Shown here: positions 12,330 through 15,035 of the stretch, in pieces
How the letters are laid out: each line of letters starts with the position of its first letter
Position numbering within the stretch: the first letter of the stretch is position 1
Origin: Elainellaceae cyanobacterium
GTDB lineage: Bacteria > Cyanobacteriota > Cyanobacteriia > CAZCXK01
DNA: 39,613 bases
NCBI GenBank assembly: GCA_051117555.1
Contig: JBNPEG010000229.1
Location: 1-39,613 of the forward strand
Direction: 5' to 3'
The notes under the pieces: model-generated
Database searches by the model: none
What the model saw: only the letters and a program-made list of their open reading frames with translations
What the model was told of the DNA's origin: nothing
Program-made: the position numbers and the translations under genes

Positions 12330-13211
12330 ATGCCTATGTCCTTTTCTAAGGTCTTCTTGCGTGGGCTTAAGTCTGATCAGTTTCGCCATCCACTCGACTT
12401 GCAGGCAACGCAGACTCTTAAGCAGTTTCCTGGCTTGGATTTACTGATTCGGAACTTTTTAGGACCCGTTGCCGAGCAGTTCTTTTATCTAGAAAATATT
12501 TCGTCTAGCGTTCTCATCAGCGAACAGCAGCTTCCTGATTTATATAAGCTGTTGGTTGAAGCCTGTGAGATTTTAGACCTAGAAGCGCCTCAGCTATACC
12601 TGCGTCAGCATCCCTCACCTAATGCTTATACATTTGCGATTCGCGGCAGACAGCCATTTATTGTGGTTCACACATCGCTGGTTGAGTTGCTGACTCCGAA
12701 TGAAATCCAAGCCGTCATAGCCCATGAGTTAGGACATTTGAAGTGCGATCATGGAGTTTACTTAACGTTGGCGAACATCATTGTGTTGGCAACGGGCCAA
12801 CTCCAACCATTTGGTGATTGGGTCGCTCAGAGCTTGCGAGAACAAATTTTAGAATGGCTCCGGTGTGCTGAATTTACGTGCGATCGCGCTGCTCTTCTTG
12901 TTTCTCAAGATTCTAGGGTCGTAGCCTCTGTGCTGATGAAATTAGCAGGCGGCTCCCCTCGGCTGGCTCCTCAACTCAATCTGGATGCGTTTCTCGCTCA
13001 AGCACGGTCTTACGACGATATCAGTGCCAGCGATGTGGGAGAAATGCTCAAAAAAATCCAGGCATCGCAATTGACCCATCCCCTTCCTGTTTTAAGAGCT
13101 AGAGAGATTGATCGGTGGGCAAGCAGTCAAACATATCAATTTCTGCTGAAAAAGCGCTCAATTGACTATAATGATAAAGCTAATATCCAGGGCGGATGGC
13201 GAAATTGGTAG
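12330..13211 (+). CDS. M48 family (HtpX/Ste24-like) zinc metallopeptidase
   Basis: PNAYT, AVIAHELGH (HExxH), EFTCDRAAL, THP motifs. Confidence 0.92.
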   Translation: MPMSFSKVFLRGLKSDQFRHPLDLQATQTLKQFPGLDLLIRNFLGPVAEQFFYLENISSSVLISEQQLPDLYKLLVEACEILDLEAPQLYLRQHPSPNAYTFAIRGRQPFIVVHTSLVELLTPNEIQAVIAHELGHLKCDHGVYLTLANIIVLATGQLQPFGDWVAQSLREQILEWLRCAEFTCDRAALLVSQDSRVVASVLMKLAGGSPRLAPQLNLDAFLAQARSYDDISASDVGEMLKKIQASQLTHPLPVLRAREIDRWASSQTYQFLLKKRSIDYNDKANIQGGWRNW

Positions 13212-13271
13212 ACGCACCACACTCAAAATGTGGCGACTTCGGTCGTGGGAGTTCGAGTCTCCCTCCGCCCA
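13190..13271 (+). tRNA. trnL-CAA: tRNA-Leu(CAA), CCA not encoded
   Basis: Acceptor stem GGGCGGA/TCCGCCC, discriminator A, D-loop AATTGGTA, anticodon arm CCACA-CTCAAAA-TGTGG (CAA 13224-13226), long variable arm, GTTCGAGTC T-arm. Confidence 0.96.
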
Positions 13272-13463
13272 TGTGGTTTATTTGCGTCAACTGGCCTATA
13301 TTATTAGCCAGCCTATTGGTTCAAATGTTTTCTTGCGCTAAAATCAGAGATAGGGCTAGTTAGGATGTAGGTTTATCGCTCACGTCACAATAGTGTTAGC
13401 GCATCATAATGTCAGCCTATTAGTTCAGCCCATTAATATTATTAAGCATCGCGGAGGTTAACG

Positions 13464-13691
13464 ATGGCTCAACGGCTCAAGCGGTGGGAGTCTCCTCGAA
13501 AAGAAGGACGCAACGCCAAGGGAAAGGGAGGAAGTGCTCGACAGCGTCAAGTTCGCAAGCAAATGCAGGGGTTACGTCAAAAACTTAAGTCGGATGATTC
13601 TCAAAAGGAGCAGTCTAAACCGACACATCAGGGGGAAGAGATTATAACTCTCTTCCCTTATTTTTTTGCGTCTAATTTGGCTTCTAAGTAG
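13464..13691 (+). CDS. Small basic protein; candidate ArfA-like ribosome rescue factor
   Basis: GGAGG RBS at 13453-13457; 15 K/R versus 2 acidic residues in the first 42 aa; KGKGGS motif; terminator inside the ORF. The CDS is well supported, the function is inference. Confidence 0.7.
   Translation: MAQRLKRWESPRKEGRNAKGKGGSARQRQVRKQMQGLRQKLKSDDSQKEQSKPTHQGEEIITLFPYFFASNLASK
13631..13667 (+). terminator. Intrinsic terminator inside the 13464-13691 ORF
   Basis: Stem GGGGGAAGAGA/TCTCTTCCCTT (9 Watson-Crick + 2 GU pairs), 7-nt loop, then A and 7 T. Confidence 0.8.
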
Positions 13692-13904: not shown

Positions 13905-13966
13905 GCAATTCGGGCGATCGCTGGTTAGATTGAGGGGAGTTTTGCAGGGGCGATCGCCCGAATTGC
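13905..13966. repeat. Perfect 17-bp inverted repeat with HIP1 in each arm
   Basis: GCAATTCGGGCGATCGC (13905-13921) and GCGATCGCCCGAATTGC (13950-13966), 28-nt spacer. Confidence 0.8.
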
Positions 13967-14070: not shown

Positions 14071-14772
14071 ATGACCACAGCTCTATTCCCTTCTCCATAT
14101 CAAGATGTGCCACTCCGACAGTGGTATGCCGCCTCCTGGGATGACTATTGCAACCTGCGAGATGCCCTCGTTTCAGAAAAACACGTCAAACTCTCATTCA
14201 ATCAAGGATGGCTTTGGGTCGATATGGGCGGCGAAGGCATTAATCACGCAAGCTACAGCGATTTGTTGACAAGCTTACTGTTCTTATGGGCAATTCAACA
14301 CCCTGACCAATCCTTTAAGTCACTCGGTCGGTGCTTGCTCGAAAAGCCCCAAACCCAAGCCTGTGCCCCTGATTTGGTCTTGTATGTGGGCGATGACTCG
14401 CCTCGCTGGCGTGAGGGCGACCCCAGACGCATCGACCTGTCGGTGTGGCGGGTTCCTGATTTGGTGGGCGAAATTTCAGACACCACCCTAGCCTCCGATT
14501 TGGATGAGCAAAAGCACCTCTGCGAAGCCTTGGGTATTCCAGAATATTGGGTGATTGATATCAAAGGTGAGCGAGTCTTTGCGTTTCAGCTCAATCAGGA
14601 CGGGGAGTATAAACTCTGTGACCAGTCTCGTGCTCTGGCAGAGTTACCTATTGCACTGCTCACTGAAACGGTGCAAAGACTCAGTGCAGATACCAATACA
14701 AGTGCAGCCGCCTGGTTTGCTCAAGAAATTGCCCGCCTGGATGCCTCTGATCAAAGCGCATCTGATCAATAA
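14071..14772 (+). CDS. Uma2 family (DUF820) putative endonuclease
   Basis: PDLV..., PDLVGEISDTT, K...ALGIPEYWVID PD-(D/E)xK-like pattern. Confidence 0.9.
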   Translation: MTTALFPSPYQDVPLRQWYAASWDDYCNLRDALVSEKHVKLSFNQGWLWVDMGGEGINHASYSDLLTSLLFLWAIQHPDQSFKSLGRCLLEKPQTQACAPDLVLYVGDDSPRWREGDPRRIDLSVWRVPDLVGEISDTTLASDLDEQKHLCEALGIPEYWVIDIKGERVFAFQLNQDGEYKLCDQSRALAELPIALLTETVQRLSADTNTSAAAWFAQEIARLDASDQSASDQ

Positions 14773-14819
14773 GCCTCACAACTCGGGATGTGTGAAACAA
14801 CCAATCGAAATCCACCCCC

Positions 14820-14943
14820 GTACGGGCGAAGCATTGCACCAATCTCTTGAAACAACAGCCCCCATCTTGCTGCAATGTACGGGCGAAGCATTGCACTAAT
14901 CTCTTGAAACAACAGCCCCCATCTTGCTGCAATGCTTCGCCCC
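14820..14943 (+). repeat. REP/REPIN-like element, 57-bp tandem duplication
   Basis: GTACGGGCGAAGCATTGCA at 14820 and 14877; inverted arm TGCAATGCTTCGCCC at 14928-14942. Same family as 39397-39613. Confidence 0.85.
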
Positions 14944-15035
14944 GACCCAATTAAAATTACGCGAAAATCGAAACACTCGAGCCTTGCGAAGAATGCTATC
15001 ATTGCCTTCACCCCAGCTTGATTTCAGCTCACCTA

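Follow-up and report, generated by a model that had tools for sequence, protein, structure and literature searches.

The window (the whole stretch of DNA analyzed here, 39,613 nucleotides [nt] of contig JBNPEG010000229.1 from an Elainellaceae cyanobacterium) carries on its plus strand, 3′ of the transfer RNA (tRNA) gene for tRNA-Leu(CAA), a small gene whose open reading frame (ORF) runs through an intrinsic transcription terminator before it reaches its stop codon (Table 1). A preliminary description of the locus had proposed that this gene encodes a ribosome rescue factor analogous to ArfA and BrfA, a back-up to trans-translation made from a non-stop messenger RNA (mRNA), which lacks a stop codon, and therefore gated by transfer-messenger RNA (tmRNA). 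The Shine-Dalgarno sequence and the ORF lie where that description had placed them, and its account of the protein was borne out by counting residues on the translation: the first 42 residues contain 15 lysines or arginines and two glutamates, KGKGGS comprises residues 19–24, and IITLFPYFF residues 60–68.

The terminator inside the ORF was likewise recovered by a terminator scan, as an 11-pair stem with a 7-nt loop followed by ATTTTTTTGC. RNA folding of positions 13622–13672 gave −17.2 kcal/mol (z = −4.41), and none of 200 shuffled sequences was as stable. The T-run ends 21 nt ahead of the TAG, in agreement with the distance previously given. Because intrinsic terminators end transcripts at the T-run, the mRNA would be expected to end near codon 67–68, without a stop codon.

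Table 1. Features of the small gene and its surroundings in the window.
Feature	Position	Strand	Evidence or remark
HtpX-like M48 peptidase ORF	12330-13211		Upstream of the tRNA gene
tRNA-Leu(CAA)	13190..13271	+	ARAGORN and Rfam; 192 nt 5′ of the small-gene ATG
Shine-Dalgarno sequence GGAGG	13453..13457	+	6 nt 5′ of the ATG at 13464
Nominal ORF, 75 codons plus TAG (13689-13691)	13464..13691	+	
Conserved basic domain, codons 1–42	13464..13589	+	Presumed functional part; 22 invariant columns among 38 sequences
Variable polar linker	13590..13630	+	Alignment; no in-frame stops
Terminator hairpin within the ORF	13631..13659	+	5′ arm all purine, 3′ arm all pyrimidine
T-run of the terminator	13661..13667	+	Read as Phe codons; expected 3′ end of the mRNA
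Tail codons plus TAG	13668..13691	+	Presumably past the end of the transcript

The small gene encodes a conserved protein of the Cyanobacteriia

Relatives of the small gene are numerous. A word-indexed protein search returned 394, with nominal lengths of 64–123 amino acids (aa), and every named one among them was a cyanobacterial "hypothetical protein". Searching 1.84 billion representatives with a family profile returned 448 clusters at E ≤ 0.001, of which 387 reached E ≤ 1e-10; the 150 top-ranking ones among the 448 comprised proteins of 70–172 aa that all matched from profile position 1–5, and no remote link to another family was visible among them. Nothing in Pfam or NCBIfam matched the window protein. 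On the genome level, relatives are encoded in at least 583 species genomes (genome scan); Nostoc, Anabaena, and Cylindrospermum species are among the carriers identified by name (loci L034, L071, L037, and L056). When the phylum was sampled evenly, the small gene was present in 117 of 401 genomes, all of them in the class of the window, the Cyanobacteriia, which accounts for about 186 of the sampled genomes according to the family tallies; about 63% of the sampled Cyanobacteriia thus carry it. It is a single-copy gene in the genome of the window and in each of the 117 positive genomes, and it is missing from all 33 members of a family with small genomes (f18).

Conservation is confined to the N-terminal part of the protein. 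In an alignment of 38 members, residues 1–42 are near-invariant (Table 1), with the consensus MAQRLKRWESPR.EGRN.KGKGGSARQRQ..K....LR.KLK. They are followed by a polar linker of variable length, a patch resembling "G-E ... L-F-P-x-F-F", and tails of 0 to ∼50 residues that are unlike each other. The variation past residue ∼42 agrees with a test that the preliminary description had suggested for homologues, namely whether residues after ∼45 vary. Among 77 distinct DNA sequences, column entropy over codons 5–42 was 0.52 at the first, 0.29 at the second, and 1.31 at the third codon position, and 70% of the codon differences were synonymous; the prevalence of synonymous differences and the high third-position entropy show that selection acts on the protein and not on the RNA. 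A GGAG, GAGG, or AGGA core within positions −16 to −4 was present in 39 of 79 related loci. The small ORF is a real protein-coding gene.

Other matches gave no further information on the family. The ESM Atlas returned unnamed clusters only, several of them cyanobacterial, and its model of the protein had a mean predicted local distance difference test score (pLDDT) of 0.47. The basic helix of the protein (see below) matched the Pfam families Syntaxin (15/38 members), DUF6800 (11/38), and DUF4202 (10/38), always below the cut-offs, and these matches were taken as compositional. Ten fused or longer forms (134–287 aa) are singletons without Pfam domains; they look like chance long frames.

Three genomes stood out in the survey. 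Two contigs bearing the small gene are assigned to organisms outside the class, "Candidatus Sericytochromatia" (locus L002) and the Legionella relative "Tatlockia" (locus L046; tRNA-Leu(CAA) 29 nt 5′). Both look like mis-binned cyanobacterial contigs, because none of the ∼215 sampled genomes outside the class has the gene. In the third (G141; same genus as the genome of the window and 99% complete), neither the small gene nor tRNA-Leu(CAA) nor the corresponding 2.4-kb segment had a match; its release factor 2 (RF2) is 98% identical to that of the genome of the window, and the peptidase is represented only by a 37%-identical paralogue. The 2.4-kb segment was either not assembled or lost in this strain, and the absence of the small gene from it is uninformative.

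A terminator precedes the first in-frame stop codon in nearly all loci of the family

To compare the architecture across relatives, the frame of each locus was set by the conserved peptide, its first in-frame stop codon was taken, and a single hairpin followed by a T-rich run was sought downstream of the conserved part. Two sets of loci were used. The close set consisted of the best 80 loci from the at least 583 genomes plus the window and hence represents the nearest relatives; 79 of its frames were parsed in the main scan. The diverse set consisted of 40 further loci among the 117 positives, chosen to cover the families and the weakest matches, which left out 77 positives. The loci share descent, and counts are therefore not independent trials.

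All 79 parsed frames of the close set contain a hairpin with a folding free energy (dG) ≤ −12 (median −16.3), whereas only 31 of 580 equal-sized windows from the flanks, both strands included (5.3%), matched at the same threshold. The hairpin comes to an end ahead of the first in-frame stop in every one of the 81 close loci: 78 were scored in the main scan, one (L017) upon rescanning, with the hairpin ending 8 nt before the TAA, and two (L056 and L062) were parsed separately. In the diverse set, the terminator precedes the stop in 38 of 40 loci. Thus, what the preliminary description had expected of homologues, a terminator upstream of the first in-frame stop, is the rule. A stop ahead of the hairpin in homologues generally, which it had named as speaking against its proposal, is not seen; just two divergent members have an early stop and no in-frame terminator. 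The hairpins themselves are diverse, with 67 different self-complementary strings among the 78 related loci parsed. RNAalifold found no consensus pairs in 46 hairpin segments, as stems of unlike length and sequence are out of register, which is why per-sequence folds and the flank control were used.

The reading frame treats the DNA on the two sides of the hairpin end differently. From codon 43 to the end of the hairpin, the frame of the gene is free of stop codons in 78 of 78 distinct loci; in the +1 frame this holds for 50 and in the +2 frame for 14 of the 78. Linker and hairpin together measure 9–35 codons (mean 21), and off-frame stops occur at a rate of 5.2% per codon. Past the hairpin, the first stop follows at a median distance of 52 nt in frame, compared with 37 and 51 nt in the two alternative frames. 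Because stops after the hairpin fall as they do in the other frames, the tail is free of coding constraint and behaves as non-coding DNA.

The composition of the hairpins is consistent with this picture. Across loci, the 5′ arm is 96% purine and the 3′ arm 96% pyrimidine, so that no stop codon can occur within the arms in any frame. The phase of the hairpin relative to the frame varies (32, 25, and 21 loci), which means that the "GE..LFP.FF" patch is not a protein motif but the hairpin and the T-run read as codons. A stop triplet is present in some phase in 58 of 79 hairpin strings, mostly in the loops, and never in the phase of the gene.

Could the small gene encode an ordinary small basic protein, made at full length because the terminator is leaky or acts only after the ribosome has passed, and with the hairpin inside the ORF for reasons of compactness? 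Three observations speak for this and against a stop-less mRNA. One member of the diverse set (L133, genome G233) has a frame of 51 codons with an ordinary TAA and no terminator nearby. Another (L139, genome G375), a divergent member in which the KGKGG motif has been lost, has an early stop that is followed by a hairpin 140 nt downstream. And in 5 of 113 loci, the stop begins no more than 9 nt from the stem and may at times be included in the transcript; in the other 108, it begins more than 9 nt past the core stem. Compactness, however, leaves unexplained why ∼21 variable codons remain free of stops in the frame of the gene (78/78 loci, versus 50 and 14 in the other frames) and why the stop triplets of the loops are always out of its phase. 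Nor would an ordinary protein be expected to have post-hairpin tails that differ so widely in length (nominally 64–172 aa for the whole protein) and sequence and that end as non-coding frames do. We therefore regard this explanation as improbable. The two exceptional loci, which comprise 50–51 codons, may represent variants with constitutive expression or copies in decay.

Taken together, the comparison indicates that the stop-less architecture is, very probably, conserved across cyanobacteria. Since the terminator precedes the stop, the mRNA should lack a stop codon and its product should be gated by tmRNA, a consequence of the design that we consider likely.

The small gene often lies directly downstream of tRNA-Leu(CAA)

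Linkage to tRNA-Leu(CAA) is frequent. Of the 79 close loci, 39 have the tRNA gene upstream and in the same orientation; the distance is at most 240 nt in 21 of these, and in 11 (L003, L007, L008, L012, L013, L027, L040, L041, L044, L046, and L079) just 21–36 nt separate the tRNA gene from the ATG. Among the 35 loci of the diverse set that were parsed by script, 8 have it no more than 142 nt away. A gap of 21–36 nt leaves no room for a separate promoter, so that in these loci the mRNA would be the 3′ part of the tRNA transcript, and its 5′ end would be set by 3′ processing of the tRNA. For the small gene of the window, tRNA-Leu(CAA) is a probable co-transcribed partner. The HtpX-like peptidase gene is found upstream in 36 of 79 loci, forming a block of peptidase, tRNA, and small gene; in the window, the peptidase ORF nominally extends 22 nt into the start of the tRNA gene. 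No conserved gene was found downstream, where the best cluster, encoded on the opposite strand, was shared by 18 of 79 loci.

With tRNA-Leu(CAA) just 5′ in many loci, the terminator would also end the tRNA transcript, and one might take the small ORF for the 3′ spacer and terminator of a tRNA-Leu(CAA) unit, for a leader peptide or attenuator of a downstream gene, or for a non-coding RNA. The strong protein-level selection on residues 5–42 argues against an RNA-only function, as does the fact that no Rfam family besides the tRNA was detected, and an attenuator is at odds with the lack of a conserved downstream gene. All variants of this explanation are thus highly improbable.

Two putative repeats lie 3′ of the small gene. 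A stretch of ∼50 nt at ∼13910–13963 has copies of 87–93% identity on three contigs of the G141 genome, which suggests a short dispersed repeat. At ∼14766–15011, minus-strand ORF translations contain ARWGLLFQEI.AMLRPY twice, which points to a direct DNA repeat of ∼50 bp.

Ribosome rescue machinery in the genome

The genome of the window is 100% complete by markers and encodes the components required for trans-translation: tmRNA (141.6 bits; tag ANNIVPFARKAAPVAA) and SmpB (212.7 bits). It contains exactly two genes with an RF-1 domain, namely prfA and prfB, for release factors RF1 and RF2. The RF2 frame (L083:1390-2427, contig C95) is matched by the prfB model only from position 22 and begins with TTG, which is in keeping with the programmed +1 frameshift that prfB usually has at its start. 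ArfB was not found above the cut-off in this genome, and a genome-wide search with the Pfam ArfA model returned no match, whereas the E. coli control was matched. In excerpts of a survey of 15,259 genomes, arfA is listed for 0 and arfB for 90 of 162 cyanobacteria (PMC11633108, Table 1).

Comparison with known rescue factors

The comparisons below draw on excerpts of the reports cited. BrfA (YqkK) of Bacillus subtilis rescues ribosomes by an alternative, RF2-dependent route; the brfA ORF contains a terminator, and the protein receives the SsrA tag, is degraded, and builds up in smpB mutants (PMC6881298). The cyanobacterial protein resembles it in being small and basic, in having ∼70 codons with an intrinsic terminator in the coding region, and in the presumably non-stop mRNA (PMC6881298). 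By analogy, SsrA tagging and accumulation upon failure of trans-translation would be expected, and the positively charged segment would suit the mRNA channel. The two differ in range (Bacillaceae versus cyanobacteria), in that the conserved part of the cyanobacterial protein is N-terminal, with a predicted helix at residues 25–49, and in the frequent linkage to tRNA-Leu(CAA).

ArfA (YhdL; PF03889), from beta- and gammaproteobacteria, has ∼72 codons, a stem-loop inside the ORF that yields a non-stop mRNA, and a tail that is hydrophobic and little conserved, all of which recall the cyanobacterial family. ArfA recruits RF2 to non-stop ribosomes and is synthetic lethal with ssrA. The stem-loop of arfA leads to premature termination or to RNase III cleavage, and the tail of the full-length protein is hydrophobic and unstable; on the ribosome, only 46–48 residues of ArfA are ordered, and its basic residues attach redundantly to the mRNA entry channel (PMC8012679). 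The cyanobacterial protein is likewise rich in basic residues, and KGKGS of ArfA is paralleled by KGKGGS: the former is invariant in 18 ArfA sequences, and in the cyanobacterial family K19, G20, G22, G23, and S24 are invariant and K21 is near-invariant. There are differences, however. The hairpin of E. coli arfA is mainly an RNase III site, whereas that of the cyanobacteria is a canonical terminator with a T-run. Moreover, KGKG is found at residues 34–37 of ArfA but at residues 19–22 of the cyanobacterial protein, and the RF2-contacting N-terminal part of ArfA therefore has no evident counterpart.

The C-terminal tails of ArfB (YaeJ) and SmpB share with the cyanobacterial protein a basic segment, which in these factors is disordered in solution, becomes helical on the ribosome, and probes the empty mRNA channel (PMC8012679). 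In contrast to ArfB, whose genes end at normal stops, the cyanobacterial peptide has no GGQ domain and would not hydrolyze peptidyl-tRNA itself; without this motif, release would need RF1 or RF2. An AlphaFold2 model based on the 38-row alignment shows residues 1–24 without regular structure and a helix at residues 25–49 (block pLDDT 75 and 91). The basic helix predicted by this model would resemble the segments with which SmpB, ArfB, and BrfA enter the vacant mRNA channel. A complex of residues 1–50 with the RF2 of the same genome, predicted from a 26-row alignment and without controls, scored 0.00, which speaks neither for nor against binding. Descent from the tail of ArfB was also considered and rejected: hhalign against 16 cyanobacterial ArfB sequences gave a probability of 0.5%, with the basic tail alone aligned.

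In terms of gene design, the distinguishing features of arfA and brfA are apparent, namely a stem-loop or Rho-independent terminator inside the ORF and before the stop. Those of a tmRNA-gated, non-stop gene are found as well: a frame open through the terminator, an unconstrained tail, and tmRNA and SmpB in the genome. By sequence, the family stands outside ArfA and BrfA, yet it shares their gene design.

The case for a function in ribosome rescue

On these grounds, gene design and composition, we suggest that the small protein acts in release-factor-dependent rescue, a function for which the chances appear about even. It would be a tmRNA-gated back-up rescue factor that works like ArfA and BrfA but is unrelated to them, and this fuller statement, too, we regard as evenly balanced.

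Several findings weigh against it, besides the rejected descent from ArfB and the exceptional loci described above. Homology to known factors was not detected. Pfam ArfA did not match the window protein at E ≤ 10 and matched 0 of 38 family members, BLASTP against E. coli ArfA gave no alignment, and hhalign against an 18-row ArfA alignment gave a probability of 3% over 13 columns ("reGRNdKGKGGSA" and "RvEKnkKGKGSy"). The family profile found a single, unrelated match (E = 0.64) among all chains of the PDB, presumably including the BrfA chain of the cryo-EM structure (PMC6881298). One similarity of ArfA and BrfA is a Lys-His motif that binds a pocket of the mRNA channel (PMC8012679); no histidine is present among the invariant or near-invariant columns of residues 1–42. 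The need for a back-up is not evident, either, as one path already exists: an RqcH homologue is encoded in the genome of the window and is listed for 161 of the 162 cyanobacteria surveyed (PMC11633108, Table 1). A search of public sequencing runs for the locus recovered shares of at most 0.06 of the sampled words, probably due to the tRNA.

ArfB could have provided an argument if it were distributed in a manner complementary to that of the small gene, but it is not. Of the about 186 genomes of the class, 58 encode both, 59 only the small gene, and 42 only ArfB (33 of the latter in family f18); as half of the carriers (58 of 117) also encode ArfB, the two distributions are not complementary, which also counts against a rescue function. 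E. coli has both ArfA and ArfB, and the co-occurrence is therefore not a contradiction; it does, nonetheless, remove a possible argument.

Much of this evidence would suit another role of the same non-stop, tmRNA-gated product. The peptide might be a different ribosome- or RNA-binding regulator that signals an overload of trans-translation, for example by slowing translation, by hibernation, or as an RNA chaperone. The architecture fits such a function equally well, homology to any rescue factor is lacking, RqcH and often ArfB already provide back-up, and a basic, mostly disordered peptide with one predicted helix would be suited to generic RNA binding. On the other hand, arfA and brfA are the only known users of this design and both encode rescue factors, a sensor of tmRNA capacity would most simply feed back on the very problem it senses, and the N-x-KGKG-S motif recalls ArfA. 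We consider another role unlikely, albeit appreciably possible.

The preliminary description had called the protein ArfA-like and BrfA-like. Of this, the gene design and the KGKGGS motif stood, while homology did not (Pfam 0/38, hhalign 3%), and its word "analogous" is apt. Its proposal of a tmRNA-gated back-up factor gained from the comparative design, from the presence of tmRNA and SmpB, and from the absence of ArfA and ArfB from this genome; the likeness to ArfA did not extend beyond the short motif. That N-x-KGKG-(G)S likeness is a lead for convergence on a common contact rather than for homology, as a match of five residues may be convergent.

A model for the rescue function

The proposed back-up rescue function would operate as follows. 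Transcription, which in many species would start at the tRNA-Leu(CAA) promoter, would end at the in-frame terminator and yield an mRNA without a stop codon. Ribosomes would then reach the 3′ end of this mRNA, and as long as trans-translation has spare capacity, tmRNA and SmpB would tag the ∼67-residue product (with ANNIVPFARKAAPVAA) for degradation. When tmRNA is saturated, the untagged peptide would build up. Its residues 1–42, the disordered segment with N-x-KGKGGS and the basic helix at residues 25–49, would bind the empty mRNA channel of non-stop ribosomes, and the bound peptide would recruit a class I release factor, by which the nascent chain would be freed. Each of these steps, termination at the hairpin, tmRNA tagging, ribosome binding, and release-factor recruitment, is proposed by analogy with ArfA and BrfA.

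What appears new here is a protein family unrelated to ArfA and BrfA, in another phylum; the regulatory design is known. In the full-text literature, with few subscription journals covered and supplements excluded, no cyanobacterial ArfA- or BrfA-like factor and no description of the small gene were found, and the preliminary description had known of none. The linkage to a tRNA gene and the stop-proof hairpin arms have no counterpart in the excerpted ArfA and BrfA literature (PMC6881298 and PMC8012679). We tentatively propose, at slightly less than an even chance, that the family is a third, independently evolved release-factor-dependent one, with a stop-less mRNA that is often the 3′ part of a tRNA-Leu(CAA) transcript and with hairpin arms that have evolved such that insertions and deletions in the linker never bring a stop into frame.

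Implications

Release-factor-dependent back-up factors are, to our knowledge, found only in narrow groups: ArfA in some beta- and gammaproteobacteria, ArfT in some gammaproteobacteria, and BrfA in Bacillus. The authors of the BrfA study predicted further unidentified rescue systems (PMC6881298), and the conserved, single-copy candidate described here would close the arfA gap in an entire phylum of primary producers. It would be the third independent gene to sense the capacity of tmRNA by its own lack of a stop codon, as well as an example of an mRNA carried along on the transcript of a tRNA gene. Whatever the function, the family suggests a search rule for further genes of this kind: a frame that is open through a terminator, an unconstrained tail, and stop-proof hairpin arms. 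If the proposed function is true, the small protein would provide a back-up for non-stop ribosomes in the half of its carriers that lack ArfB, and tmRNA-gated expression from non-stop mRNA would be a recurrent solution that has arisen in at least three phyla.

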